Below, one piece after another: positions 4,670 through 48,953 of a stretch of DNA of 64,000 nucleotides (the first letter of the stretch is position 1; each line of letters starts with the position of its first letter). Under the pieces are notes generated by a model. It was given only the letters and a program-made list of their open reading frames with translations. It made no database searches and had not been told where the DNA came from. The stretch is taken from IMG/VR virus record IMGVR_UViG_3300045988_167643; one strand, given 5' to 3'. Origin of the DNA: a virus. The translations under genes were made by a program, and so were the position numbers.

Positions 4670-4968
4670 TTTATTACAAAATGTAAATTAATAGGTATAC
4701 AAAACCAATTACCAGATTATCATAAATACCTACTGTTTTGTAACCATGTAAATTAAGAGGTATACAAAACCAGATCCCCTTACACGACTGACACGGCGTT
4801 GTTTTGTAGTCATGTAAATTAAGAGGTATACAAAAATATGGATGGACGATCACAAGTCCTACAGAAGTTTTGTAACCATGTAAATTAAGAGGTATACAAA
4901 ACCAAACGAAAAACTCAAAGTTGATACCAAATGTTTTGTAACCATATAAATTAAGAGGCATACAAAAC
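4670..4968. CRISPR. CRISPR mini-array, 5 repeats / 4 spacers
   Basis: 36-nt repeats at 4670-4705, 4735-4770, 4801-4836, 4867-4902 and 4933-4968. Consensus is GTTTTGTAACCATGTAAATTAAGAGGTATACAAAAC. Copies 2 and 4 are identical; copy 3 has 3 changes, copy 5 has 2, and copy 1 is degenerate in its first 11 nt. Unique spacers are 29, 30, 30 and 30 nt. Confidence 0.9.
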
Positions 4969-5212
4969 CTCAAAGTATAGTTTTATACCTCTTATTTTAA
5001 GGCACTTCTATGAAATAGACTAAGAGAAATCTACGTTATAAAAAGATAATATGTTATGGTGTCGCTCTAGCTGTAATTATATCGTTTGTACCTAAACATA
5101 CACTGTGCCGAACATGATTGGTGTAAGTGATACAAACATGTAACTTTTTATAACATTGTCGAAGAGCATGACCAATTTTAAATTGAGATTATATTATAAA
5201 GGAAATAAAAAT
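4969..5212 (+). ncRNA. putative tracrRNA / omega-RNA-like scaffold with anti-repeat
   Basis: ORF-free interval between the last repeat and the iscB-like start. 4980-5002 (GTTTTATACCTCTTATTTTAAGG) is complementary to the 3' two-thirds of the + strand repeat. Position and length match omega-RNA/tracrRNA loci. Ends and strand are not determined. Confidence 0.5.
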
Positions 5213-6952
5213 ATGAATTATATGGATTTTGTATTAATTGTGGATAAAAATAGTAAACCATGTATACCAATAAAAAATGGTAAAGCAGGTTATTTATTAA
5301 GAGAACATAAAGCAGAAATTATAAATCACGAGCCATTAGTTATCAAAAGAACTGATGATTATAATTCGGATTTAGAAAATAGAGATATATTTGAATTAAA
5401 AGTAGATAGTGGATATTTAAATATCGGATTTTCTGTAAGCGATAATGAGCATGAATATATTGCAGGTCAAGTTGAAATGCTAAACGGAATGAGTAATAGA
5501 TTGTTAGAAAGAAAATCTATGCGTAGTTTCAGAAGAAATCGTTTACGTTATAGAAAAAATAAGAACATTGATTATAAAACAGTACATAATCCTACTTATA
5601 AAAATGGAAATGAAGATGGATGGTTTGCACCGTCTATTGTACATAAAATGGAAACGCATATCAGAATCATTGAGCAATTAAAACAATGGGTTCCAATCGA
5701 TAAAGTTATTGTAGAGGTGGCAAATTTTGACATTGCTGCAATGGATGCATATTTAAAGGACGGAACTATTTTAAATGGAAAAGATTATCAAAATGGTGAA
5801 ATGAAAGGATATGAGAATGTTGTATCTTATGTAAGAGCCAGAGATAATTATTCTTGTTACTTTTGCAATAAGAAAAAGAAAAAAGATGGTACACTAAAAG
5901 AGAAACCAAAAAGAATAGAAGTGCACCATAAAATACCAAGATCCTGGGGTGGTACTAATAATCCAGGAAATTTGATTTGCGTATGTCAAGGATGTCATCA
6001 GAAAATACATTCGAATAATAATAACAACAAATATTTTAAAGAATTATTAGAACAAGCTTTACAAGAAAATACATTTAAAGATTCTACATATATGAATATT
6101 GTTAGATGGGAATTATTAAACAGACTTACTGAAAAATATCCAGAGCTTGATATTGAAGCTGAATATGGTTATAACACAAAAATTAATAGAAAAGAAGCAG
6201 GTTTGAGAAAATTCCATTATAATGATGCAGTTTGTATAAAAGAATTTAAGAATATAACTTTATCTAAAAAAGTATTTATTGTCGAACAAAAACGTTGTAA
6301 TGATAGAAAAATGGAAAGTTTTGCAGATGCAAAATATATAGATTCAAGAGATGGTAAAAAGAAAAAAGGAAATGATCTAAAAGTAATTAGGCATAGTACT
6401 AAATCAAAACGCTCTACAAATAAAGAACATATTGATAATGAAAGAATCTTTAGAAAAGAGAAAGTATCTAAGGGTAAAATACAATTTGAGTGTCATTCAT
6501 ATTGCGTAAAACCAGGAGATTTAATATACATAAAAGAAGGTAAACATAAAGGGAAAATTGCAGAAGTTTCTACAATACAGATTGTAGGCGAAAAAATTCC
6601 TAATCCGATAATTGATATTAATGAGATAAATAATAAAAAAATTGATTTCAACAGAGAGTTGAAAAAAAGAAAAACAACTTCTAATATGACTGATTATCAA
6701 AAACGTTTTGCAAAATATCAAATTAGATTTACATATAAAGAATCTGATGCAGATGGACCATCTATAACGCTTACGCAAAAAGAATATGAAAAGCTTAAAG
6801 AGAATAAATCAGATAGAGTAAAAATTATTCGTACCAGACGTGGATTAGTTTGGAGAGAGTACGACAGACTTACATATGAAGCCGAAAATATGGATCAGGA
6901 AGAAAAGAAATTAGAAGTAAAAAATAAGAAACAAGAATTAAAAGCTGCATAA
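5213..6952 (+). CDS. iscB: IscB-type RNA-guided nuclease (PLMP-RuvC-bridge helix-HNH-RuvC, no REC lobe), CRISPR-associated
   Basis: 579 aa from ATG 5213 (track ORF opens at TTG 5156). Motifs: PLMP-like DFVLIVDKNSKPCIPIKNGKAGYLL; RuvC-I LKVDSGYLNIGF; bridge helix RSFRRNRLRYRKNK; RuvC-II VIVEVANFD; HNH CYFCNKK...EVHHKIPRSWGGTNNPGNLICVCQGCHQKIH; RuvC-III KFHYNDAVCI. Confidence 0.8.
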   Translation: MNYMDFVLIVDKNSKPCIPIKNGKAGYLLREHKAEIINHEPLVIKRTDDYNSDLENRDIFELKVDSGYLNIGFSVSDNEHEYIAGQVEMLNGMSNRLLERKSMRSFRRNRLRYRKNKNIDYKTVHNPTYKNGNEDGWFAPSIVHKMETHIRIIEQLKQWVPIDKVIVEVANFDIAAMDAYLKDGTILNGKDYQNGEMKGYENVVSYVRARDNYSCYFCNKKKKKDGTLKEKPKRIEVHHKIPRSWGGTNNPGNLICVCQGCHQKIHSNNNNNKYFKELLEQALQENTFKDSTYMNIVRWELLNRLTEKYPELDIEAEYGYNTKINRKEAGLRKFHYNDAVCIKEFKNITLSKKVFIVEQKRCNDRKMESFADAKYIDSRDGKKKKGNDLKVIRHSTKSKRSTNKEHIDNERIFRKEKVSKGKIQFECHSYCVKPGDLIYIKEGKHKGKIAEVSTIQIVGEKIPNPIIDINEINNKKIDFNRELKKRKTTSNMTDYQKRFAKYQIRFTYKESDADGPSITLTQKEYEKLKENKSDRVKIIRTRRGLVWREYDRLTYEAENMDQEEKKLEVKNKKQELKAA

Positions 6953-11611: not shown

Positions 11612-12406
11612 ATGTTTAAGGCAAGATCTCTTGATCCAGTACTTGATCCAAAGAATGTTATTAGAGAATGTTGCGATTCAGAAGATCATCCAAACACATT
11701 ACCAGTTGTGATTGCACTTGATGTAACTGGATCTATGGGGCAAGCTGCAGTTGAGGTAGCAAAAAAACTTAATGGAATTATGACAAAACTTTATGAAAAA
11801 ATTGCAGATGTTGAATTTATGATTATGGGCATTGGAGATTTATCATATGATTATAATCCAATTCAAGCATCTCAATTTGAATCAGATATAAGGATTGCAG
11901 AGCAACTTGATAAAATTTACTTTGAATTTGGCGGTGGTGGAAATGGATTTGAGTCATATAGTGCTGCATGGTATTTTGGAACTCATCATAGTAAACTTGA
12001 TTGCTGGAATCGTGGTAAACGAGGAATTATTATTACAATCGGTGACGAGAGATTGAATCCTTATCTTCCAATCCGAAGTAGATGTTCTGGTTTAATTGCA
12101 ACACTTGGAGATAATTTAGAAAAAGATGTGGAAACTCCAGAGCTATTTGAAGAAGCTTCTAAGAAATTCGACATTTATCATATTCATGTAAATCATGGTA
12201 GTAACTATGACAAAGAAGGTATTGAAAAATCCTTTAAGTCTATTATTGAAGAAAATCATTTCAAAGAAGCGACTTTAGACAATATTGCAGAGACTATTGT
12301 AAATATTATTGTTGATGCAGCTGAGAACGATGTTAATACAATTATAACACCTGCGACAACACCTACTCAGGTAAGTACAAATGAGAATGGTGAAATTGTT
12401 TGGTAA
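11612..12406 (+). CDS. von Willebrand factor A (vWA) domain protein
   Basis: MIDAS-like VVIALDVTGSMG. Coordinates start at the first in-frame ATG; the true start may be ATG 11503 via a frameshift in a G5 run (see findings). Confidence 0.65.
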   Translation: MFKARSLDPVLDPKNVIRECCDSEDHPNTLPVVIALDVTGSMGQAAVEVAKKLNGIMTKLYEKIADVEFMIMGIGDLSYDYNPIQASQFESDIRIAEQLDKIYFEFGGGGNGFESYSAAWYFGTHHSKLDCWNRGKRGIIITIGDERLNPYLPIRSRCSGLIATLGDNLEKDVETPELFEEASKKFDIYHIHVNHGSNYDKEGIEKSFKSIIEENHFKEATLDNIAETIVNIIVDAAENDVNTIITPATTPTQVSTNENGEIVW

Positions 12407-12428: not shown

Positions 12429-13526
12429 ATGAAAGACATTAAGATTGTGGCTGGAGCAAACTGGGGAGACGAAGGAAAAGGACTAATGACTGATTACTTT
12501 TCACAGAAACCTAATAGTATTGTAGTATGTTCTAATGGTGGAAGTCAAAGAGGACATACTGTGGTAACACCGGACGGAATCAGACATGTCTTTCATCATT
12601 TTGGTTCTGGAACTTTTAATGGTGCTGCTACATATTTACCAAAAGAATTTATTGTAAATCCACTTATTTTTGCTCAAGAATATAAAGAACTGATAAATAA
12701 GAGAATTATTCCTAATATTTATGTTCATGGAGATTGTATGGTTTCGACTCCGTATGATATGATGGCAAACCAGGTCATCGAAGAGAGTCGTGGAAAACAA
12801 AAGCATGGTAGTTGTGGATTTGGAATTTTTGAAACCATTAAGAGATATAAAAATGGTATAACCGATTTTGATAAAGCAAAGGACTATTATCTTGAAAAAT
12901 TTGAACGAGATAAAATTCTACTATCAGACGACTGGAAAAGAATATTTAATGATCCAGGAATAAATGATCATTTTATAGAAGATTTGGATTTTATGAATGA
13001 TCACATTAAATCAATTAGAGATGAAAGCTTTCTAAATATGTTTGACCATATTATTTTTGAAGCTGCTCAAGGACTACTACTCGATCAGAATAATCTAAAA
13101 TATTTCCCATATCTTACACCATCTAATACAGGTCTGAAAAATCCTAAAAAAATTATTGAAAGAATTGATTGGTATGATGAATTAAATATAGAAGTATGTT
13201 ATGTGACACGTACATATTTAACGAGACATGGTGTCGGTCCGTTTCCAACAGAGTGTGATAAAGACGAAATTAATTCTGAAATGCACGATAATACAAATGT
13301 ACCTAATCCTCATCAGGATACTTTACGTTACGGAAAGTTAGATTTAAATGAGTTATATCAAAGAGTGATGGAAGATGTTGGAAATTTTAAATGTAAAAAA
13401 TCTATTGCCATTACACACTGTAATGAATTTAGAATGGATGAAGATAAGTTTGAGAAGTTATTTTTAGGATGGAATATTTATAAATCAGATGGTGAAACAC
13501 ATAATAGCATAAAGGAGACAAAATAA
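12429..13526 (+). CDS. adenylosuccinate synthetase (PurA)-family enzyme, divergent, PurZ-like candidate
   Basis: Blocks AGANWGDEGKGLMTDY, NGGSQRGHTV, FEAAQGLLLDQ, YLTPSNT and TRHGVGPFPTE align with PurA signature blocks. 365 aa, shorter than bacterial PurA. The TTGRxRR Asp-binding loop is not recognisable. Confidence 0.65.
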   Translation: MKDIKIVAGANWGDEGKGLMTDYFSQKPNSIVVCSNGGSQRGHTVVTPDGIRHVFHHFGSGTFNGAATYLPKEFIVNPLIFAQEYKELINKRIIPNIYVHGDCMVSTPYDMMANQVIEESRGKQKHGSCGFGIFETIKRYKNGITDFDKAKDYYLEKFERDKILLSDDWKRIFNDPGINDHFIEDLDFMNDHIKSIRDESFLNMFDHIIFEAAQGLLLDQNNLKYFPYLTPSNTGLKNPKKIIERIDWYDELNIEVCYVTRTYLTRHGVGPFPTECDKDEINSEMHDNTNVPNPHQDTLRYGKLDLNELYQRVMEDVGNFKCKKSIAITHCNEFRMDEDKFEKLFLGWNIYKSDGETHNSIKETK

Positions 13527-19522: not shown

Positions 19523-21721
19523 ATGAGAACTTTATTATTATTTCGTGGTGCACCAGGAGTTGGTAAGAGCACTTATATTGAGAAAAATGGTTTAAAGCCA
19601 TATACATTATGTGCAGATGATATTCGTTTACTTTGTCAGAGTCCGGTATTATCTGTAAATGGTAGTACAGAAATTACACAGAATAATGATGGCACTGTTT
19701 GGAAAACGTTATTTACTCTACTAGAGGTTAGAATGCAGCGTGGAGAATTTACAGTTATAGATGCAACTAATTCCAAGACTTCTGAAATGAACAAATATAA
19801 GAAATTATGTCAGGAATATAGGTACAGAATTTTTCTTGTTGATTTTACAGATGTTTCAATCGAGGAATGTAAGAAAAGAAATAGTCTTCGTGCCGCAATG
19901 AAACAGGTTCCTGAAGCTGTTATTGATAAGATGTACAGTAGATTTAAAACACAGGGGATTCCATCCGGTATTACAGTAATTAAGCCGGAAGAACTTGATA
20001 AAGTGTTTATGAAAAAAATTGATTTGTCCGAATATAAAGCGATTCATCACGTAGGAGATATACATGGTTGTAATACAGCTTTACAGAAATATTTGAACGC
20101 AATTAGCGGAATCAAGGACGATCACTTCTTTATATTTTGCGGAGACTATATTGATAGAGGAATTGAAAATGCGGAAGTGGTTCAGTTTCTCTTAAGCATT
20201 AAGGACAAACCAAACGTACTTTTGCTTGAGGGCAATCACGAAATTCATCTAAGAAAATATAGTGAAGATAAGAAGTCATTCTCAAAAGAATTTGAATTAT
20301 TTACAAAACCTGCATTAGATAAAGCCGGTTTTAGTAAGAAAGATCTGCGGCAGCTGTGTAGAAAATTTGCTCAGTGTGCCTATTATACATATCATGGAAA
20401 TACATATCTTGTTACTCACGGTGGTCTGAATACAATCCCACAAAATCTTACTTTTGTTGCAACCGATCAAATGATTCATGGAGTTGGTAGATATAATGAT
20501 GTAGAGCAAGTTGCTGATACATTTTTCACCACTACCGATGATCATACTTATCAGATTTTTGGTCATAGAAATACTAAAGGATTTGACATTAATGTTAATC
20601 CAAGAGTATACGATCTTGAAGGACAGGTTGAGTTTGGTGGCTGTCTGAGATGTATTGATATCGTTCCTGGTGGAAGTATAACCTATGAGGTTAAGAACAA
20701 TGTATTCAGAGAGCCAGAAAAATCAGCAAGAACTATGAGTAATAATGTATCTGATGCACTTATTGAACTGAGACATAATAAATATGTCACTGAAAAACAA
20801 TTTGGAAATATTTCTTCTTTCAACTTTAGTCCAACAGCTTTTCAAAAAAATATATGGGACGAGCAGACAACTAAGGCAAGAGGTTTGTTCTTAGATACTG
20901 AAAAATTTAAAGTTGTGGCAAGGTCCTACGACAAATTTTTCAATATAAATCAGCGTGAAGAAACTAAACTTGATGCTCTGCAGCGTACATTAGAGTTTCC
21001 AGTAGCTGCCTATGTTAAAGAAAATGGATTTCTTGGAATTGTTTCCTGGAATGAGTATACAGATGATTTGTTTATTACAAGTAAATCTGATCCTGAAGGA
21101 CCATTTTCCGAATGGCTAAGAGATATGGTTTATACGAAAATTTCTAAAGAGAATCTTGAGAAGATGAAGAAGTATATTGAAGAGAACGATGTTTCTTTTG
21201 TATTTGAGTGCTGCGACATGGAGCATGATCCACATATTATTGATTATCCAGAAAGTAAGTTGGTTTTGCTTGATATTGTATACAATACTTTGGATTTCCA
21301 GAAATATAACTATGAGGATATGGCTCATGTTGGTCGTGATCTTGGGCTAACAATCAAGAAACAGGCTTATGAGTTATCTACATGGCAGGAATTTTATGAT
21401 TGGTATTTTGAAGTTTTAGAAGAAGATTATGAATACAGAGGTGATAAGATCGAAGGATTTGTAATCGAAGATGCTAATGGATATATGGTTAAGCTGAAAC
21501 TTACATATTATAACTTCTGGAAGTTTATGCGTGGTATTGCTCATGAGACTTTAAAGAAAGGTTGTACAAACAGGACATCATTGTTGACTACGCCGGTAGC
21601 GAATGAATTTTACGCTTGGTGCAAGAAACAGTTTGAAAATGGTAAAGCTGATGAGCTGCCAAGAGATATTGTTACTTTAAGAAAAATGTTTTATGAGGAG
21701 AAAGAGAATAATGTGGATTAG
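19523..21721 (+). CDS. trifunctional RNA repair enzyme: polynucleotide kinase / metallophosphatase / RNA ligase-like (bacterial Pnkp architecture)
   Basis: P-loop LFRGAPGVGKST. Calcineurin-type blocks HHVGDIHGC, GDYIDRG, EGNHE, THGG and GHRN. Ligase motif I VKENGFLG (KxNG) and motifs IV/V EGFVIED...VKLK. Confidence 0.7.
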   Translation: MRTLLLFRGAPGVGKSTYIEKNGLKPYTLCADDIRLLCQSPVLSVNGSTEITQNNDGTVWKTLFTLLEVRMQRGEFTVIDATNSKTSEMNKYKKLCQEYRYRIFLVDFTDVSIEECKKRNSLRAAMKQVPEAVIDKMYSRFKTQGIPSGITVIKPEELDKVFMKKIDLSEYKAIHHVGDIHGCNTALQKYLNAISGIKDDHFFIFCGDYIDRGIENAEVVQFLLSIKDKPNVLLLEGNHEIHLRKYSEDKKSFSKEFELFTKPALDKAGFSKKDLRQLCRKFAQCAYYTYHGNTYLVTHGGLNTIPQNLTFVATDQMIHGVGRYNDVEQVADTFFTTTDDHTYQIFGHRNTKGFDINVNPRVYDLEGQVEFGGCLRCIDIVPGGSITYEVKNNVFREPEKSARTMSNNVSDALIELRHNKYVTEKQFGNISSFNFSPTAFQKNIWDEQTTKARGLFLDTEKFKVVARSYDKFFNINQREETKLDALQRTLEFPVAAYVKENGFLGIVSWNEYTDDLFITSKSDPEGPFSEWLRDMVYTKISKENLEKMKKYIEENDVSFVFECCDMEHDPHIIDYPESKLVLLDIVYNTLDFQKYNYEDMAHVGRDLGLTIKKQAYELSTWQEFYDWYFEVLEEDYEYRGDKIEGFVIEDANGYMVKLKLTYYNFWKFMRGIAHETLKKGCTNRTSLLTTPVANEFYAWCKKQFENGKADELPRDIVTLRKMFYEEKENNVD

Positions 21722-25715: not shown

Positions 25716-25789
25716 GAGTATTTTAGAAATATATAAAAAATAAGGAGTAGTGAGATTTGCTGCAGCGATAAAATCATGGTTTGCTCCGT

Positions 25790-26572
25790 ATGAAAATGTT
25801 AGAAATAAATAAAATTTATAATGAAGATTGCCTTATTGGATTAAAAAAACTTGACTCAGACATAGTTGATCTTACAGTAACAAGCCCGCCATATGATGAT
25901 TTGAGAAAATATAATGGATATTCATTTGATTTTGATGCAATTTCTTATGAGTTATTCCGTGTAACTAAACCAGGTGGTGTTTTGGTTTGGGTTGTTGGAG
26001 ATAAGACTAAGAATGGATCTGAAACAGGGACCTCGTTTAAACAGGCGTTACAGTTTATGAAAGTTGGATTTAAGTTGCATGATACTATGATTTTTGAAAA
26101 AACCAATCCAATTCCGCAAAATCATAATCGTTACGAGCAATGTTTTGAGTATATGTTTGTATTTAGTAAGGGTAAGCCAAGTACATTTAATCCAATAAAG
26201 GTTCCAACTAAAAATGCCGGAAAAGTGTTTAATTGGGGAGATAGAAAAACTGTTATGGATGATAATCAATGTCGTAGGGACAGGACGACAGATTTATACA
26301 CAGTAAAGTCAGAAAAGATACATAATAATATATTTACGTATAGTATTGGTGGTGGAAAATCAGGGCATCCTGCTGTATTTCCAGAACAATTGGCGAAAGA
26401 TCATATTTTATCATGGTCAAATCCTGGTGATTTAATTCTTGATCCGTTTATTGGAAGCGGAACTACTGCAAAAGCTGCCATTGAGCTTGATAGAAATTAT
26501 ATTGGATTCGAGATTAGTAAAGAATATTGTGATATTGCAGAAGAAAGATTAAGAGGAAGTGAAAAGGTATGA
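25790..26572 (+). CDS. DNA methyltransferase, N6-adenine/N4-cytosine (beta class)
   Basis: Motif IV DLTVTSPPYDD precedes motif I DPFIGSGTTAKAA; no cognate endonuclease recognised. Confidence 0.8.
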   Translation: MKMLEINKIYNEDCLIGLKKLDSDIVDLTVTSPPYDDLRKYNGYSFDFDAISYELFRVTKPGGVLVWVVGDKTKNGSETGTSFKQALQFMKVGFKLHDTMIFEKTNPIPQNHNRYEQCFEYMFVFSKGKPSTFNPIKVPTKNAGKVFNWGDRKTVMDDNQCRRDRTTDLYTVKSEKIHNNIFTYSIGGGKSGHPAVFPEQLAKDHILSWSNPGDLILDPFIGSGTTAKAAIELDRNYIGFEISKEYCDIAEERLRGSEKV

Positions 26573-26925: not shown

Positions 26926-27810
26926 ATGGAAAATAAAATGCAGATTACAGCGAAAAGCTATTTTAGTGGTGCAGGTGGAATGGATCTTGGAATTGAAGAA
27001 GCAGGGATCAATATTCTTGAATCATACGAAATTGATAAGAAATGTTGTGATACGTTAAGAAAAAATTTTAAGCACAAGGTTAACGAAGCTGATATTACTA
27101 AAATTACAGTTCTTGATCAGCAAGATGCAGATGTGTATATTGGAACTTTTCCATGTACAAAATACTCGATTGCTGCAGATATTAATGGTACAAGAACCGG
27201 TGATGATTTATTTCTTCATTTCTTTAGGCATATTGCATTGGCACAACCAGAAATGTATATAGTTGAGAATGTTCCTGGGATGATTAAGTTTAAAGTAGTT
27301 ATGGAGGCGTTGACTAAATTGCCAGATTATTATGTAAGAATTGAATGTCCTGTGAACGCAAATATGTGGCTTCCACAAGAACGTAAGAGATTAATTCTTA
27401 TTGGTAGTAAAAAGCCGTTAACTAATCTTGATTATCCAGATGAAACTCCATTACGACTGAAAGATATTATTCAAACAGATAGTGAAATAAATATTCCGCA
27501 GTATGTGTTAAATCGTATTAATGGTAATTACAGAGATAAACCAATTGTTTCTGATCCTGAATGTGATGATCTTGCACCAACATGTGTAGCACACTATTCA
27601 AAAGATAGAGGAACTAGATTAATTAAAGACGGTAATAGAATCCGACCATATACAGTCAGAGAGTATGCAAGACTACAGGGTTTTCCAGATTGGTTTGAAT
27701 TTTGTGGAAGTGATAGTGATGCTTATAGACAGATTGGTAATGCTGTTGCCGTTCCAATGGGACGCTGGGTTGGAAGTCAGATTGTAAAATATTTTAATGG
27801 AGCGAGGTAA
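26926..27810 (+). CDS. dcm: DNA (cytosine-5)-methyltransferase
   Basis: Motif I FSGAGGMDLG, motif IV GTFPCTKYS, motif VI VENVPG, QERKR, motif X RQIGNAVAVPM. Confidence 0.85.
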   Translation: MENKMQITAKSYFSGAGGMDLGIEEAGINILESYEIDKKCCDTLRKNFKHKVNEADITKITVLDQQDADVYIGTFPCTKYSIAADINGTRTGDDLFLHFFRHIALAQPEMYIVENVPGMIKFKVVMEALTKLPDYYVRIECPVNANMWLPQERKRLILIGSKKPLTNLDYPDETPLRLKDIIQTDSEINIPQYVLNRINGNYRDKPIVSDPECDDLAPTCVAHYSKDRGTRLIKDGNRIRPYTVREYARLQGFPDWFEFCGSDSDAYRQIGNAVAVPMGRWVGSQIVKYFNGAR

Positions 27811-38555: not shown

Positions 38556-40604
38556 ATGAAGATGTATGATCCGGAAATCTGGAAAAATGAGAACAATGGA
38601 TATGAGGAACTTATTGAAAACATTAAGAAAACTTTTGCATCAAAATTGAAAGACAATGTAAAAACACCATTATTCAGAACAAGCGTATCTGACTTATTTG
38701 ACACATTTCTTTACTATCTTCCAGATGCTTGCAAACAGGAATATACATGTAGAGCTTGTAAACACTTTGTAGATCGATTTGGTGGACTTGTATTTATTAA
38801 AGAAGATGGAACAACTGAGTCTGCTATTTGGAATGTTGAAAATATTCCTGGAATGTTTATTGAGCCAATTACACAGATGAAAGAGATTGTTGAATCTGCA
38901 CAGGTCCAGGATATATTCGTATCAGACTATGTGGATCTTGGAACATATGATACTAATGGATTCCATCATTTTTCTGTAAAACTTCCAAGAGTAATGATCA
39001 ATACATCAAGAGTAAAAAATGCATCACAGGTATCTGCTGAGAAAGCTGAAGATTATGGAATGCTGAAAAGAGCACTTGAGAAGTATTCCATGCCACAGAT
39101 TGATCAGGCACTTAATTTATTAGAATCCGGAAGTTTATATAGAGGTAGCAGCTATGTAGCAATGTGCAAATGGTTTAAGGAAACAAAAGAGAAGATTGCT
39201 TCTATCAATGATCAGCCACAGCACACTAATATGATTTGGAAATATGCTGCTACAGCTCCAAATGGATTTACTCACATTTCCGGAAGTATGTTAGGTACAT
39301 TACTTGACTATATTGTAGATGGTGATGACTTTGATACTATCAAGCGTAAATTTGAGACTAATATGAGTGCCGAGAATTATAGACGTTCACAGTCTGCACC
39401 TACTCAGAGAGCTGTTGAAAGTGCTGAAAAACTTATTGAAAAACTTGGTCTTGCAGATTCACTTAGAAGAAGATATGCAAAACTGGATGAGCTTCCTGAG
39501 AATGAATTTATTTGGAAGAGTAAAACTGAAAAGAAAGATGAAGTAAAGACTGGAGTATTTGCAGGAGTTCAGACTAAAGCTGTAGATAGTAATGAAACAA
39601 AATCTGTAATTCCACAGGTAACTATGACATGGGATAAATTCGGAAAAACAATTCTTCCTACCGCAGATAAATTGGAAGTAAAGGTTGATGGAACAACTCA
39701 TCTTATGGGAATGGTAACAGCTGCGGTTCCGGAATCTGAAAATATTATGAACTGGGATAATCCATTTTCTTGGTATTATCAGAGTGGTATTGATTCTGTG
39801 ATTCGTGAGCGACTTGAAGCAAAAGGTGCAAAATATGAAGGTTGTGAGATCAGATGCTCTCTAATCTGGAATACACGAACAGATTTAGATTTGCATTGTA
39901 TTTGTCCTGATGGAGTAGAAATTTATTTTGGACATAAGAATCACGGATATGGTTCATTGGATGTTGATGCAAATGTTCATGGTGAGACAGTAACACCTGT
40001 TGAGAACATTCGTTGGCCACTTGGTAAAGTTCCAGAAGGACGTTATAAATTCTTTGTTAATAACTATACAAATAGAGCAACCCAGAATCCATATAAATTA
40101 GAGCTTGAAGTAAATGGAAAAATTTATACTTATGATGGAAATCTTATAAGTGATAGTTGTAGAAAAAATACAGACGTAGTATTTGAATTTGATTATTGTC
40201 ATGGCGAAGATCCTAAGTTTACTGCAAATTCTAAAAAGACAGAAACTAAAGAAACTTGGGGAATTAGCAACGGATTCTCAGAAGTTGTTGCAATTATTCC
40301 GTCTCCAAACATGTGGGGAGAAAATCCATATAAACGATCTGGTGAACATACTTTCTTCTTATTGAAAGACTGCAAAGATATGACAGGCGGAGTTGGACGT
40401 GGTTTCTTTACTGAAATGCTTAAGGGTGATTTACAGGAAATTAGAAAAACACTTGAGGCATATACAGCTTCAACACCTATTGAAGGTGAAGATGAAGCAA
40501 GTGCTTGTGGTGTTGGCTACAGTAAAGATAAAGAGTGGAATCTGATTGTAAAAGTGACTACCGGCAACATTGTAAAAATGATTAAGATTGATAGGTTTGA
40601 CTGA
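38556..40604 (+). CDS. large hypothetical protein (682 aa)
   Basis: AAGGAG RBS; N-terminal CxxC; beta-rich segment LIWNTRTDLDLHCICPDGVEIYF...LDVDANV; family not recognised. Confidence 0.65.
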   Translation: MKMYDPEIWKNENNGYEELIENIKKTFASKLKDNVKTPLFRTSVSDLFDTFLYYLPDACKQEYTCRACKHFVDRFGGLVFIKEDGTTESAIWNVENIPGMFIEPITQMKEIVESAQVQDIFVSDYVDLGTYDTNGFHHFSVKLPRVMINTSRVKNASQVSAEKAEDYGMLKRALEKYSMPQIDQALNLLESGSLYRGSSYVAMCKWFKETKEKIASINDQPQHTNMIWKYAATAPNGFTHISGSMLGTLLDYIVDGDDFDTIKRKFETNMSAENYRRSQSAPTQRAVESAEKLIEKLGLADSLRRRYAKLDELPENEFIWKSKTEKKDEVKTGVFAGVQTKAVDSNETKSVIPQVTMTWDKFGKTILPTADKLEVKVDGTTHLMGMVTAAVPESENIMNWDNPFSWYYQSGIDSVIRERLEAKGAKYEGCEIRCSLIWNTRTDLDLHCICPDGVEIYFGHKNHGYGSLDVDANVHGETVTPVENIRWPLGKVPEGRYKFFVNNYTNRATQNPYKLELEVNGKIYTYDGNLISDSCRKNTDVVFEFDYCHGEDPKFTANSKKTETKETWGISNGFSEVVAIIPSPNMWGENPYKRSGEHTFFLLKDCKDMTGGVGRGFFTEMLKGDLQEIRKTLEAYTASTPIEGEDEASACGVGYSKDKEWNLIVKVTTGNIVKMIKIDRFD

Positions 40605-40605
40605 T

Positions 40606-41640
40606 ATGAACATTGAAGAGATTAAGAAAAAAGTAGCTGGTCCGGACTATGATTTTCTGAGAAACAATGAACACCTTGGCTCCAACATTATTTTGTTGGG
40701 GTTAGGTGGAAGCTATAGCTATGGTACTCAAAAATCTGACGGAACGAGCGATTTGGATTTGAGGGGAATTTGCTTAAATAAAAAGCATGAAATTCTTACT
40801 AACCAGAATTTTGAACAATTTATCAACGAAGATACAGATACAACTATTTATGCGTTTAATAAGATTATTTATCTTATGGCAGCTTGCAACCCTAATGTTA
40901 TTGAGCTAGGAGGGCTTAAACCAGAACATTATTTATATATTCATCCAATTGGACAAGAAATATTAGATAATGCACATATGTTTTTATCTAAAAGGGCAAT
41001 TCATTCATTTGGTGGTTATGCCTCGCAACAATTAAGAAGAACAAATAACAAGGCAGCTCGTTTAGTAGGACAAACAGAGCGTGAACAACATATTTTAAAT
41101 TCGATAAACAATGCATTTTATACTTTTCCTACAAAATATTTTACATTTCCGGATGATTCTATAAAACTATATGTAGATAAGGCGGTTCAAGAAGACTATG
41201 ATACCGAAGTATTTATGGATATTAATCTAAAGCATTATCCGTTACGTGACTATAAATCTATGTGGTCCGAAATGAATAATATTGTTAAAGATTACTCGAA
41301 AATTGGTAAGCGTAATAAACATGCGGTAGAGCATGGAAAATTAGGTAAGCACATGATGCATTTGGTTCGCCTGTACTATATGTGTTTTGATATTTTGGAA
41401 AATGAGAAGATTATTACATACAGAGAAAAAGAACATTATTTGTTGATGGACATTAGAAATGGTAAATATTTAGATGAAAACAAACAGCCAATTCCAGAAT
41501 TCTTTGAGATGGTAAATGAGTTGGAAAAGAGACTGGAATATGATGCAGAAAACACATCACTTCCAGACAGTCCGGATTATAAAAGAATCAATGAGTTTGT
41601 TATGTCTGTAAACGAAAGAATTGTGAAAGGAGAAATTTAA
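40606..41640 (+). CDS. Pol-beta-superfamily nucleotidyltransferase (RlaP-like)
   Basis: LGLGGSYSYGTQKSDGTSDLDLRGI matches the GS...G...SD.D.RG nucleotidyltransferase motif of the RNA-repair-associated RlaP family (from memory). Confidence 0.5.
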   Translation: MNIEEIKKKVAGPDYDFLRNNEHLGSNIILLGLGGSYSYGTQKSDGTSDLDLRGICLNKKHEILTNQNFEQFINEDTDTTIYAFNKIIYLMAACNPNVIELGGLKPEHYLYIHPIGQEILDNAHMFLSKRAIHSFGGYASQQLRRTNNKAARLVGQTEREQHILNSINNAFYTFPTKYFTFPDDSIKLYVDKAVQEDYDTEVFMDINLKHYPLRDYKSMWSEMNNIVKDYSKIGKRNKHAVEHGKLGKHMMHLVRLYYMCFDILENEKIITYREKEHYLLMDIRNGKYLDENKQPIPEFFEMVNELEKRLEYDAENTSLPDSPDYKRINEFVMSVNERIVKGEI

Positions 41641-47193: not shown

Positions 47194-47573
47194 GAAGTTG
47201 AATAGTGGAATGTTGGCTTAGAAGCAGCCATCATCTAAGGAGTAGGGCTTTAAGTCTAAAGGTATGAAAAACTTCAATCGAAGATAAACGAGTAAGAGAA
47301 TAGGATGTAAAGAGTTATGATACGTCACCCCTTAACAGGTAAGGACAAGTCCCCTTTTGGCGTAATAGCACACCACTATTAATATTTTAGATGCATTTAA
47401 AAAATTAGGTCGTGCAGTGGCAGAATGGACATATGCGTATAATAATGCTTTATTTACAAAATTAGGCATATTATAATGGCGAATTTATGTCAGTAAACAA
47501 AATTGATAAAATTTGCTTATATAGGGTTCAAATCCCTATCTGCACATTAAATCTTAAAGAAAGGAGAATAAAA

Positions 47574-48953
47574 ATGATAGAGGGTATTGTATTACCAGAG
47601 TCCGTAAAATCTATATTTTACGTACTTAATCGTAATGGTTATGAAGCCTATCTTGTAGGTGGAGCTGTACGAAATTCTATTATAGGATTACCTGTACACG
47701 ACTGGGATATCTGCACAAATGCCTTGCCGGAAGACGTATGTAAATTATTCCGTAGTAAAGGATTTCGTGTAGTAGAAACAGGCTTGCAGCATGGCACTGT
47801 AACTGTCATGGTAAATTATCGTGGATACGAGATAACTACTTATAGAACTGATGGAAAATATACTGATAGTCGCCATCCAGATTCTGTAAAATTTATCGGA
47901 AGTATTCACGAAGATTTAGCAAGACGTGATTTTACAATGAATGCAATTGCTTATAATGACGATGATGGATTTATTGATCCGTTCAATGGACTAAAAGATA
48001 TTGAGAATAAAGTTATACGATGTGTAGGCACACCTGTTGATAGATTCACAGAAGATCCGTTACGTATTATGAGAGCTGTAAGGTTTGCCGCCCAATTAGG
48101 ATTCCATATTGAAAACTATACCAATATTGCAATGGTACAAACAAATGATGGTTTGTCAAAGATTTCTGCAGAAAGAATACAATCAGAGCTGTGTAAGATT
48201 CTTATTTCAGATCATCCTGAGTATGTACTTGATTATTATATTGATATTTCACCGGCAATTCCTGAGTTAAGTAAGATGATGGGATGCTCTCAAAATAACA
48301 TGTATCACATTTATGATGTATGGAATCACACCAGATTTTCATTAACAGCTTGTAGAATACATGAATTAGAGACCAGACTTGCTATCTTATTGCACGATAT
48401 TGGTAAACCAGAATCAAAAACTGTAGATCGAGGAATTGAGCACTTCTATGGACATGCTGTTAAAAGTGCAGAGATTACTGAATCACTACTTCGTAGACTA
48501 AAATTTTCCAACGAGATTAGGGAATCTGTAGTAGAACTTGTAGCAAGTCATGATATGGAAATTGTACCAAAACCAAATAAAATTAAAAAATATCTGAATA
48601 AACTTGGTGAAGCACAACTTAGAAGACTGTTAGATGTAAGATTCTGCGATATTATGGCACACAATCCGTATTATGCAAAAGATCGTCTATGGGAAATTTT
48701 TCGTGCAGAAGAAATATTAAATGAAGTTCTGGCAGAAGCGAAGTGTTTTTCTATAAAAGATTTGGCTATAAATGGGAAGGATATTATGGAACTTGGCGTA
48801 CCGGAAGGACCAGATGTCGGAAAATGGCTTAAATATGCATTAGAGGAAGTAATTAATGACAGGTTGGATAACGGCAAAGAAGATATTCTAAACGATATTG
48901 AGGCTAAATTATTTGCAGAAAGAGAAGAAGGTAATGACGAGGAAATGTCCTAA
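47574..48953 (+). CDS. cca: CCA-adding tRNA nucleotidyltransferase
   Basis: ATG 47574 after AAAGGAGAATAAAA. Blocks GGAVRNSIIGLPVHDWDICT, RDFTMNA, EDPLRIMRAVRFA and HD motif LLHDIGKP. Confidence 0.85.
   Translation: MIEGIVLPESVKSIFYVLNRNGYEAYLVGGAVRNSIIGLPVHDWDICTNALPEDVCKLFRSKGFRVVETGLQHGTVTVMVNYRGYEITTYRTDGKYTDSRHPDSVKFIGSIHEDLARRDFTMNAIAYNDDDGFIDPFNGLKDIENKVIRCVGTPVDRFTEDPLRIMRAVRFAAQLGFHIENYTNIAMVQTNDGLSKISAERIQSELCKILISDHPEYVLDYYIDISPAIPELSKMMGCSQNNMYHIYDVWNHTRFSLTACRIHELETRLAILLHDIGKPESKTVDRGIEHFYGHAVKSAEITESLLRRLKFSNEIRESVVELVASHDMEIVPKPNKIKKYLNKLGEAQLRRLLDVRFCDIMAHNPYYAKDRLWEIFRAEEILNEVLAEAKCFSIKDLAINGKDIMELGVPEGPDVGKWLKYALEEVINDRLDNGKEDILNDIEAKLFAEREEGNDEEMS

Follow-up and report, generated by a model that had tools for sequence, protein, structure and literature searches.

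The CRISPR array and its iscB gene

The window, a stretch of 64,000 nucleotides (nt) of phage DNA (IMG/VR record IMGVR_UViG_3300045988_167643), carries a short CRISPR array directly upstream of a gene for the predicted nuclease IscB. The array (positions 4670-4968) consists of five 36-nt repeats with the consensus GTTTTGTAACCATGTAAATTAAGAGGTATACAAAAC, which are separated by four spacers of 29, 30, 30 and 30 nt. The last repeat is followed by a short loop, an anti-repeat complementary to the repeat and a scaffold of the omega-RNA (HEARO) type, and iscB starts with an ATG at 5213. We put the probability at about 0.8 that 4670-6952 is a phage-borne CRISPR-associated IscB locus, which is read on the + strand and works by the mechanism set out in the last section. 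An earlier note, made from the sequence of the window, had already drawn attention to this arrangement. Its coordinates for the fifth repeat, the 11-nt loop, the stretch at 4980-5002 and the start codon of iscB proved exact when the sequence was re-read, and the open reading frames (ORFs) around the array lie on the + strand, as it had stated.

Repeat 1 (4670-4705) has no spacer upstream of it and deviates from the consensus at eight positions, seven of which fall within nt 1-11, in agreement with the earlier description. Spacer 1 (4706-4734, 29 nt) is common to the phages L002 and L007 at one mismatch, and repeat 2 (4735-4770) has the consensus sequence. Spacer 2 (4771-4800, 30 nt) is G+C-rich and has no match in IMG/VR or INPHARED. 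Repeat 3 (4801-4836) shows three mismatches and repeat 4 (4867-4902) corresponds to the consensus; the 30-nt spacers 3 (4837-4866) and 4 (4903-4932) are both without a match in IMG/VR. Spacer 4 is the one proximal to iscB and contains the 8-mer CTCAAAGT. Repeat 5 (4933-4968), the last repeat, carries the substitutions G14A and T27C and forms the 5' strand of a hairpin in cis, whose loop CTCAAAGTATA extends from 4969 to 4979. All of these elements are given as read on the + strand. An ORF of 99 amino acids on the minus strand (4674-4973) lies wholly within the array and was rejected as a repeat artefact; the same artefact has been called as a 95-amino-acid 'gene' on the public contig L094 (9462-9749).

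The iscB gene (5213-6952, + strand) encodes a protein of 579 amino acids, which matches the NCBIfam model guided_IscB (NF040563) over residues 7-342 with 250.2 bits against a cutoff of 175. The Pfam family RRXRR (PF14239) was found at the N-terminus (E 3e-32), and HNH (PF01844) was matched as well; together, the family matches cover the N-terminal RRXRR region, a split RuvC domain and the HNH domain, beyond which the protein has a C-terminal extension. The best solved relatives are IscB chains in the PDB (E 1e-41 to 1e-42), whereas a chain of the compact Cas9 protein YnpsCas9 reaches only 5e-17 and is similar solely in the nuclease core. Residues D65, E168, H238/H239, H335 and D338, which were assigned to the RuvC and HNH active sites by sequence inspection, are invariant across 22 members of the clade. 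The protein is not a Cas9 effector, for which a REC lobe and the lack of an IscB-type N-terminal domain would be expected, and fits the IscB equivalog model instead. Judged by these matches, the ORF encodes a bona fide IscB and thus a predicted nuclease.

Repeat:anti-repeat pairing, scaffold and strand

The minimum free energy (MFE) fold of 4933-5018 is a two-part stem. In the upper helix, nt ~10-36 of the last repeat pair with GTTTTATACCTCTTATTTTAAGG (4980-5002), and in the basal helix nt 1-8 of the repeat (GUUUUGUA) pair with UAUGAAAU (5009-5016); a 6-nt internal loop separates the two parts. An inverted-repeat finder also reported complementarity between the repeats and 4976-4999, with arms of 19-24 nt that are 83-89% complementary. 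The earlier note had recognised the pairing of 4980-5002 with repeat nt ~11-36, which stands; its extent has to be corrected, as the anti-repeat spans 37 nt (4980-5016) and corresponds to the repeat along its entire length, as an inverted copy that has diverged; the spacer abuts the stem. With 5009-5016 counted in, the concern that a third of the repeat lacks a partner also falls away. The duplex of repeat and tail reaches -18.0 kcal/mol compared with -8.7 +/- 2.7 kcal/mol for shuffled tails, and 2 of 300 shuffled tails attain the observed value.

Downstream of the loop, positions 4981-5172 (+ strand) match the HEARO model of Rfam (RF02033) from model position 1 to 211 and therefore over its full length; similar matches are present in the related loci L001-L004. 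In the alignment, 5009-5016 falls on the 3' strand of the first hairpin of the model, and the AGAC directly 3' of it is the start of the scaffold's pseudoknot strand. In a canonical omega-RNA this first hairpin is closed; here the repeat stands in for its 5' strand, which places the spacer exactly like an omega-RNA guide. The scaffold shares with HEARO RNAs the position immediately upstream of iscB, the same direction as iscB and the full-length alignment including the pseudoknot strands. It differs from them in that the first hairpin is opened: the CRISPR repeat provides its 5' strand and the array junction stands in place of its loop. In addition, the guide would be exchangeable rather than fixed.

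The earlier note had described a natural single-guide unit resembling omega-RNA on the + strand, and this description holds: it comprises the last spacer, the repeat, the loop, the anti-repeat and a scaffold of ~190 nt before iscB. Its suggestion that the upstream repeats can use the same anti-repeat is likewise borne out, since the consensus repeat pairs with the anti-repeat in trans at -18.7 kcal/mol and the mutated last repeat at -13.1 kcal/mol. The corresponding duplex of the degenerate repeat 1 reaches -10.6 kcal/mol. A single terminator-like site in the region depends on a mutation that is private to the last repeat of the window, and terminators are not enriched over shuffled sequences. 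The -10-like sequence TATAGT in the loop was considered as a promoter of a tracr-type RNA and was rejected, as it is not conserved in the other repeat types.

Related loci were retrieved by protein-based searches, which yielded 6 viral and 33 metagenomic loci with IscB proteins of 47-100% identity, and more were added by look-ups of exact proteins. Most of them presumably stem from gut or rumen-type assemblies, judging by the accession prefixes. The contigs are up to 222 kb long, and those with the repeat type of the window range from 88 to 222 kb. Nearly all of the ~40 loci are laid out alike, with an array of one to eight 36-nt repeats that ends 231-293 nt before the start of iscB. A co-directional array directly upstream and an anti-repeat joined to an omega-like scaffold, the features by which a CRISPR-associated IscB is recognised, are therefore found in ~40 loci.

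The repeats of the family fall into 13 sequence types, for each of which we determined the best RNA duplex that the repeat can form with the segment beginning at the loop and ending at the AGA anchor. Cognate duplexes have a mean energy of -20.1 kcal/mol and non-cognate ones of -11.2 kcal/mol; each of the 13 repeats has its cognate tail as the best or second-best partner, and each of the 13 tails has its cognate repeat among the best three. In the 12 types other than that of the window, between 0 and 4 of 300 shuffled tails match the observed energy. The optimal duplex is the same two-part stem in 12 of the 13 types and spans almost the whole repeat. In these duplexes, predicted type by type, 20 of the 36 repeat positions show double-sided (compensatory) changes; position 6, for example, forms an A:U pair in four types and a G:C pair in five. 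The earlier note had named missing conservation or covariation in related phages as an outcome that would refute the pairing. As the stem is kept and co-varies instead, the pairing is, on this comparative evidence, maintained by selection. The scaffold was analysed with RNAalifold on 18 loci, which gave 48 consensus pairs, 23 of them with double-sided changes; the covarying pairs include a long-range helix and the AGA(C)...GTC pairs of pseudoknot type.

Several results bear on the strand that is transcribed. The + strand repeat:anti-repeat duplex is the more stable one in 11 of the 13 types (summed energies of -260.9 versus -204.4 kcal/mol), and it is rich in G-U pairs, which correspond to A-C mismatches on the opposite strand. 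Furthermore, the phage repeats were compared with 167 repeats, each the first of a genuine type II-A array, from the data deposited with Van Orden et al. The + orientation gave the best match in 12 of 13 types, with up to 31 of 36 identical positions, and the mean best match was 28.1/36 for the + and 24.8/36 for the - orientation. The match of the scaffold to HEARO and its covariation are both on the + strand. Taken together, this favours an array that is read on the + strand. The earlier note had pointed to a conflict between the strands. The features that had suggested the - strand are explained by the polarity of spacer acquisition rather than by transcription. The degenerate first repeat, which had been taken as a sign of - strand reading, fits the oldest 'extra' repeat of type II-C arrays instead.

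The family also contains natural variants of the unit. In L012 (1140-1260), a deletion that begins 87 nt before the array and reaches the last repeat has left one repeat ahead of the anti-repeat and a non-spacer sequence in the guide position, and L018 (1217-1252) has an array of a single repeat. L026 (1173-1290) has lost the last repeat, the CTCAAA motif of the loop and the start of the anti-repeat, and its spacer is fused to GTTTTGGAATTATATAAAATT...CCAAAAAT. The 5' end of this spacer, GTTTTGG, can pair with CCAAAA ahead of the pseudoknot strand, and L026 would in effect be a natural truncated, compact single guide. Two more distant IscB loci, L040 (815-1030) and L047 (877-1280), with 33-38% identity, possess arrays with unrelated repeats; L040 is without the CTCAAA motif, and in L047 the degenerate repeat apparently lies at the IscB-proximal end, beside the anti-repeat. 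Judging from their repeats, both look like independent captures of CRISPR arrays by IscB. Three independent short-read assemblies (L095, L096 and L097) break 338 nt before iscB, near the end of the array, which would fit a mixture of array versions that coexist within the samples.

Spacer uptake, spacer targets and the phage background

Four comparisons between near-identical phages revealed that shared spacers are IscB-distal only and that novel spacers are IscB-proximal. With spacer numbers that restart for each repeat type and are comparable only within a pair of loci, the window contains spacers 0, 1, 2, 3 and L002/L007 contain 0, 8, 9; the corresponding series are 4, 5, 6, 7 in L001/L008 and 4, 10, 11 in L003/L010, 0, 1, 2, 3 in L004 and 3, 5, 6 in L014, and 1, 2 in L016 and 1 in L017. 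The pair L026 and L027 is compatible with IscB-distal sharing. In addition, the decay of the repeats rises towards the distal end, as in L031, where the repeats show 5, 3, 3, 3, 3, 1, 1 and 0 mismatches, and a 5'-degenerate distal repeat recurs in related loci. Distal spacer sharing and distal repeat decay together indicate that new spacers enter at the IscB-proximal (last) repeat. By their position in the array, spacer 1 of the window would be the oldest and spacer 4 the newest.

A similar polarity is known from type II-C arrays. In these, the last repeat is the site of spacer entry; the oldest repeat is the first one, a spacer-less 'extra' repeat with mutations in its first ~15 nt, which weaken pairing with the trans-activating CRISPR RNA (tracrRNA) (PMC12080349, PMC12638026). 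Given the direction of transcription that we infer above, the window combines the same two properties: acquisition at the last repeat, and an oldest first repeat in which seven of the eight mutations lie in nt 1-11. It differs from type II-C systems in having IscB instead of Cas9 and no cas1 or cas2 in the locus; a scan for consensus promoters gave no sign of promoters embedded in the repeats, and the equivalent of the leader consists of the few nt between the last repeat and the anti-repeat.

These few nt are conserved. The first seven positions of the loop correspond to the motif (C)TCAA(A)N, in which TCAA is invariant in 13 of 13 types, the preceding C is present in ten and the following A is also present in ten; beyond position 8 of the loop, conservation is gone. 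On the opposite strand, the motif reads (A)TTTGA(G) joined to the GTTTT of the repeat end, a 7-of-7 match to the leader end of type II-A arrays. This leader end, ATTTGAG with a GAG/GTTT junction, is shared by 87 of 167 loci of type II-A and was reported to be essential for adaptation (PMC5382924). The motif variants TTTGAT, ATTGAG and TTTGAC of the phage family were likewise found in genuine II-A leaders. The window thus shares with type II-A systems the heptamer and its junction against a 36-nt GTTTT...AAAAC repeat, spacers of 30 nt and the close match of the repeats. It differs from them in the position of the motif, which stands at the 3' end of the repeat in the sense of the CRISPR RNA (crRNA) and on the opposite strand, and in that no Csn2, Cas1, Cas2 or Cas9 was found encoded in the DNA examined. 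The canonical placement, with ATTTGAG adjoining the first transcribed repeat on its 5' side, is not seen, and there is no such motif upstream of repeat 1; the near-palindromic termini of the repeat would allow the motif to be used at the opposite repeat end. That CTCAAA(T) is a working leader-anchoring site for the Cas1-Cas2 of a host type II system, through which spacers are loaded into the cis single-guide position, can only be put forward tentatively.

The family contains 82 distinct spacers, 76 of which are 29 or 30 nt long, the typical length in type II-A arrays. Their G+C content is 40.5%, compared with 32% for the phage. Growth of the array by local duplication, as considered in the earlier note, does not agree with 82 different spacers of uniform length and higher G+C content, next to a loop motif that stays the same whatever the spacers. 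The 8-mer CTCAAAGT on which this idea was based is indeed present both in spacer 4 (4914-4921) and in the loop (4969-4976); it gives no hint of duplication, as the loop copy is conserved in 13 of 13 types. The likeness extends to AAAAACTCAAAGT in spacer 4 (4908-4921) and AAAACCTCAAAGT at the junction of repeat end and loop (4964-4976), which agree at 13 of 14 aligned positions. It may be due to chance, or the spacer may derive from the corresponding junction in a rival phage; such a source was not found. Two pairs of adjacent, similar spacers occur in the family, one in L006 (3491-3585) and one in L031/L092 (L092 9380-9475). The L006 pair reads ATG TGG TTC TGG CAC AAC CCG and ATG TGG TAC TGG CAT GAT CCG, and by our own translation the differences within the adjacent pairs appear to be synonymous or conservative codon changes, which points to separate acquisitions from related, diverging targets and not to duplication within the array.

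Degenerate searches with the two variant spacer pairs gave partial protospacers only. A spacer of L006 matches positions 2080-2110 of L099, a 36-kb viral contig, at 27 of 31 positions, within a gene at 1747-2217. From its HPD motif, this gene can be read as encoding a J-domain protein, and a neighbouring gene (2376-2972) resembles tyrosine-recombinase-type integrases by eye, which makes temperate elements a candidate target class. The other hit, in L101, was discarded as a protospacer, as it agrees at only 22 of 30 positions and is too weak for use. The single spacer of L033 matches the related phage L016 at 27 of 30 positions. That two spacers have such partial matches in genes of other viral contigs likewise speaks against an origin by local duplication. 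None of the 82 spacers matched any of 50,697 cultured-phage records, and the 24-nt cores of spacers 2, 3 and 4 of the window had no match in IMG/VR.

Genes for spacer acquisition were sought with PADLOC among 79-84 ORFs of the 64-kb window. The first scan was swamped by methyltransferase families and was therefore repeated without the suspected methyltransferase ORFs and iscB; no cas1, cas2, cas4, csn2 or cas9 family was among the matches listed, which comprise 25 of 182 matched families in the first and 25 of 36 in the second scan. Cas families of Pfam were also absent within 10 kb on either side of the array locus in four relatives (L090-L094). Given that the DNA examined yielded no adaptation genes, the source of an integrase would have to be either another part of the phage genome or the host.

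The window as a whole is phage DNA. Matches to PHROG families include an RNA ligase/kinase, a tRNA nucleotidyltransferase, a PurZ-type adenylosuccinate synthetase, methyltransferases and structural proteins, and the nearest cultured relatives of a conserved protein of 682 amino acids come from Brevibacillus and Bacillus phages. The identical array and IscB are present on a metagenomic contig of 216.5 kb; the genome of the phage is ~216 kb. An ORF of 365 amino acids (12429-13523, + strand) matches the PHROG '2-aminooxy adenylosuccinate synthetase' (E 2e-69) and was read as PurZ-type; a gene of this type is also located near iscB in relatives (Pfam Adenylsucc_synt, L090/L094). The phage DNA may contain 2-aminoadenine in place of adenine, with a possible bearing on how the nuclease discriminates between self and non-self. 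Candidate DNA methyltransferases with methyltransferase-like motifs are encoded at 11612-12403, 25781-26569 and 26926-27807 (+ strand), and PADLOC gave many matches to methyltransferase families among the ORFs of the window (best E 4e-85), which suggests heavy self-modification of the phage genome. The ORFs at 19523-21718, 40588-41637 and 47487-48950 (+ strand) form an RNA-repair and tRNA toolkit with a 732-amino-acid fusion of RNA ligase and polynucleotide kinase-phosphatase, a nucleotidyltransferase and a tRNA nucleotidyltransferase. In relatives, genes for Thg1, PARP and an NAD-dependent DNA ligase adjoin iscB; the public contig L094, of which the window is part, carries a PemK-family toxin gene (1411-1851) ~8 kb upstream of the array. 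In the type-B phage L004, a skipping-rope RNA (Rfam RF02924; 71.3 bits, gathering score 36.7) is located at 5761-5841 (+ strand), ~200 nt downstream of iscB.

Proposed mechanism, alternatives and meaning

In the proposed mechanism, a transcript that runs from the array into the scaffold would fold such that the last repeat pairs with the anti-repeat in cis, and spacer 4 would then be the natural single guide for IscB. The upstream spacer-repeat units could use the same anti-repeat, either by alternative folding or in trans after processing. Guided in these ways, IscB would cleave matching DNA of competing mobile elements. A Cas1-Cas2-type integrase acting in trans would insert new spacers at the last repeat; it would most likely belong to a type II system of the host because none was found encoded nearby. 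With such insertion, the newest spacer would in each case directly become the single guide in cis. Repeat 1 would be the oldest, 'extra' repeat without a spacer, and its 5' mutations would switch off a guide that serves no purpose, in line with what has been proposed for type II-C. Least certain in this scheme is the recruitment of a trans-acting integrase by the loop motif.

A number of results weigh against this reading. For the repeat type of the window itself, the duplex energies of -18.0 kcal/mol (+ strand) and -20.2 kcal/mol (- strand) do not differ meaningfully. The private substitutions of the last repeat weaken the cis hairpin to -11.4 kcal/mol, compared with -17.0 kcal/mol for a consensus repeat; the unit is thus hard-wired through its topology rather than through superior pairing. 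The MFE of the whole region 4903-5212 (310 nt) is no better than that of shuffled sequences (z -1.4), and the 86-nt unit and the comparative analysis were therefore used instead. The covariation table was compiled from duplexes predicted type by type and leans towards pairing, for which the non-cognate duplexes and the shuffled tails served as controls. When repeat and scaffold were submitted to RNAalifold together, the repeat:anti-repeat stem was not recovered and the palindromic ends of the repeat were paired instead, because MAFFT misaligns the variable loop. The match to HEARO (56.4 bits, E 1e-10) stays below the gathering score of 83, and the scaffold is therefore treated as a homologue and not as a formal member of the family; canonical relatives at 31-39% protein identity score 80-118 bits. 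A scan for consensus promoters found 10 sites, compared with 7.0 +/- 2.7 expected in shuffled sequences, none of which is repeat-periodic.

With regard to spacer uptake, the loop motif abuts the last repeat at the end opposite to that used in canonical II-A arrays, and its function as a spacer integration signal would follow from sequence identity and polarity only. The screen for cas genes covered 64 kb of the ~216-kb genome. No host array with the same repeats was found in 185,579 species-representative genomes, a weak negative obtained with a strict 36-nt pattern for four repeat types. Protospacers were not found for any of the four spacers of the window, and no target-adjacent motif could be derived because just two or three partial protospacers were found in the family.

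The alternative closest to the proposed mechanism accepts the guide architecture as described. It regards CTCAAA as a loop feature that acts at the RNA level, in processing or in contact with a protein, and attributes spacer turnover to recombination among the arrays of phages or to the capture of repeat-spacer units. Repeat-mediated deletions clearly occur, as seen in L012 and in L026 with its spacer fused to the anti-repeat; cas1, cas2 and csn2 were found neither in the window nor beside its relatives, no host genome with matching repeats came to light, and the motif stands at the non-canonical end of a II-A-like repeat. Such a role in RNA would, however, leave unexplained why the motif matches the II-A leader end at seven of seven positions and varies in the same way as genuine II-A leaders, why spacers are gained next to it in every informative comparison while repeat decay is graded distally, and why the spacers have the 29-30 nt generally regarded as typical of type II-A; the L040 lineage, with its unrelated repeats, has an array without the motif. 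Overall, we consider this alternative rather unlikely. A further alternative sees an ordinary type II mini-array, which is read on the - strand from the intergenic 'leader' for a host Cas9, next to an IscB with a fixed omega-RNA, the complementarity between repeat and anti-repeat being incidental. Virus-borne mini-arrays that rely on host Cas proteins do exist (PMC6858448), the leader-like motif and the degenerate distal repeat would fit - strand reading under the II-A rule, and the - strand duplex of the window's own repeat type is marginally better. Against it, the anti-repeat covaries with 13 repeats and sits at the 5' end of a covarying + strand scaffold, and the asymmetry of the wobble pairs favours the + strand in 11 of 13 types. 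As the + orientation resembles II-A repeats in crRNA sense, transcripts of the - strand would be antisense to the partner of a host tracrRNA, and the same polarity is normal for type II-C. A - strand mini-array is for these reasons improbable.

It is hardly credible that the complementarity arose by chance or is a decaying relic, for instance an inverted partial repeat left by recombination, that plays no role in a guide. The sequence is AT-rich, the fold of the whole region does not surpass shuffles and the last repeat of the window is mutated, which speaks for such an origin; however, the layout is conserved with compensatory changes down to 47% IscB identity and across 13 repeat types, and so is the distance of 231-293 nt from the last repeat to the ATG.

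The proposed phage-borne CRISPR-associated IscB locus has a known counterpart in DelIscB (Altae-Tran et al. 2021 as described in Zhang et al. 2025; PMC12660989). Both have an IscB effector and an upstream non-coding RNA with spacers, repeats and an anti-repeat, and in DelIscB the hairpin of direct repeat and anti-repeat can likewise be formed and was truncatable into an engineered single guide (PMC12660989). CRISPR-associated IscB has been placed as an intermediate on the way from omega-RNA to crRNA:tracrRNA, and likewise between IscB and Cas9 (PMC12660989); the idea of such an intermediate in the earlier note was correct, but it repeats this published description. The phage clade differs from DelIscB in being phage-borne, in the size of its proteins (513-579 versus 457 amino acids), in the II-A-like 36-nt repeats, in the leader-end motif within the hairpin loop and in the polarised turnover of spacers. 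It also resembles the virus-borne mini-CRISPR arrays in having short arrays in viral genomes, no adaptation genes in the DNA examined and at least some spacers similar to genes of other viruses; the mini-arrays rely on host effectors, whereas the phage of the window brings its own effector and scaffold (PMC6858448). The searchable literature contained no report of a phage-borne clade of IscB arrays of this kind, of II-A-like repeats with a II-A leader end inside a guide hairpin, or of continuing, polarised spacer gain in an IscB array for which no adaptation genes were found. The single-guide hairpin is hence known from DelIscB; new are the phage clade, the leader motif in the loop and the polarised uptake of spacers.

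IscB is regarded as the ancestor of Cas9, and the coupling of a nuclease with a fixed-guide omega-RNA to an updatable array is an open step in this evolution. The phage clade offers many natural variants of the intermediate, with arrays of one to eight repeats, the deletion forms L012 and L026, and thirteen co-evolving pairs of repeat and anti-repeat. It makes two questions testable, namely whether an IscB array borrows the adaptation module of a host type II system and whether the newest spacer is favoured through folding in cis. The covarying pairs also define a minimal stem for compact guides of this nuclease family of ~520-580 amino acids. If CTCAAA(T) does work as a leader-anchoring site for the integrase of a host, the locus would show a present-day IscB linked in trans to CRISPR adaptation. 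Leader, tracr function and scaffold would then be compressed into one intergenic region of ~240 nt, for phages to use against rival mobile elements.

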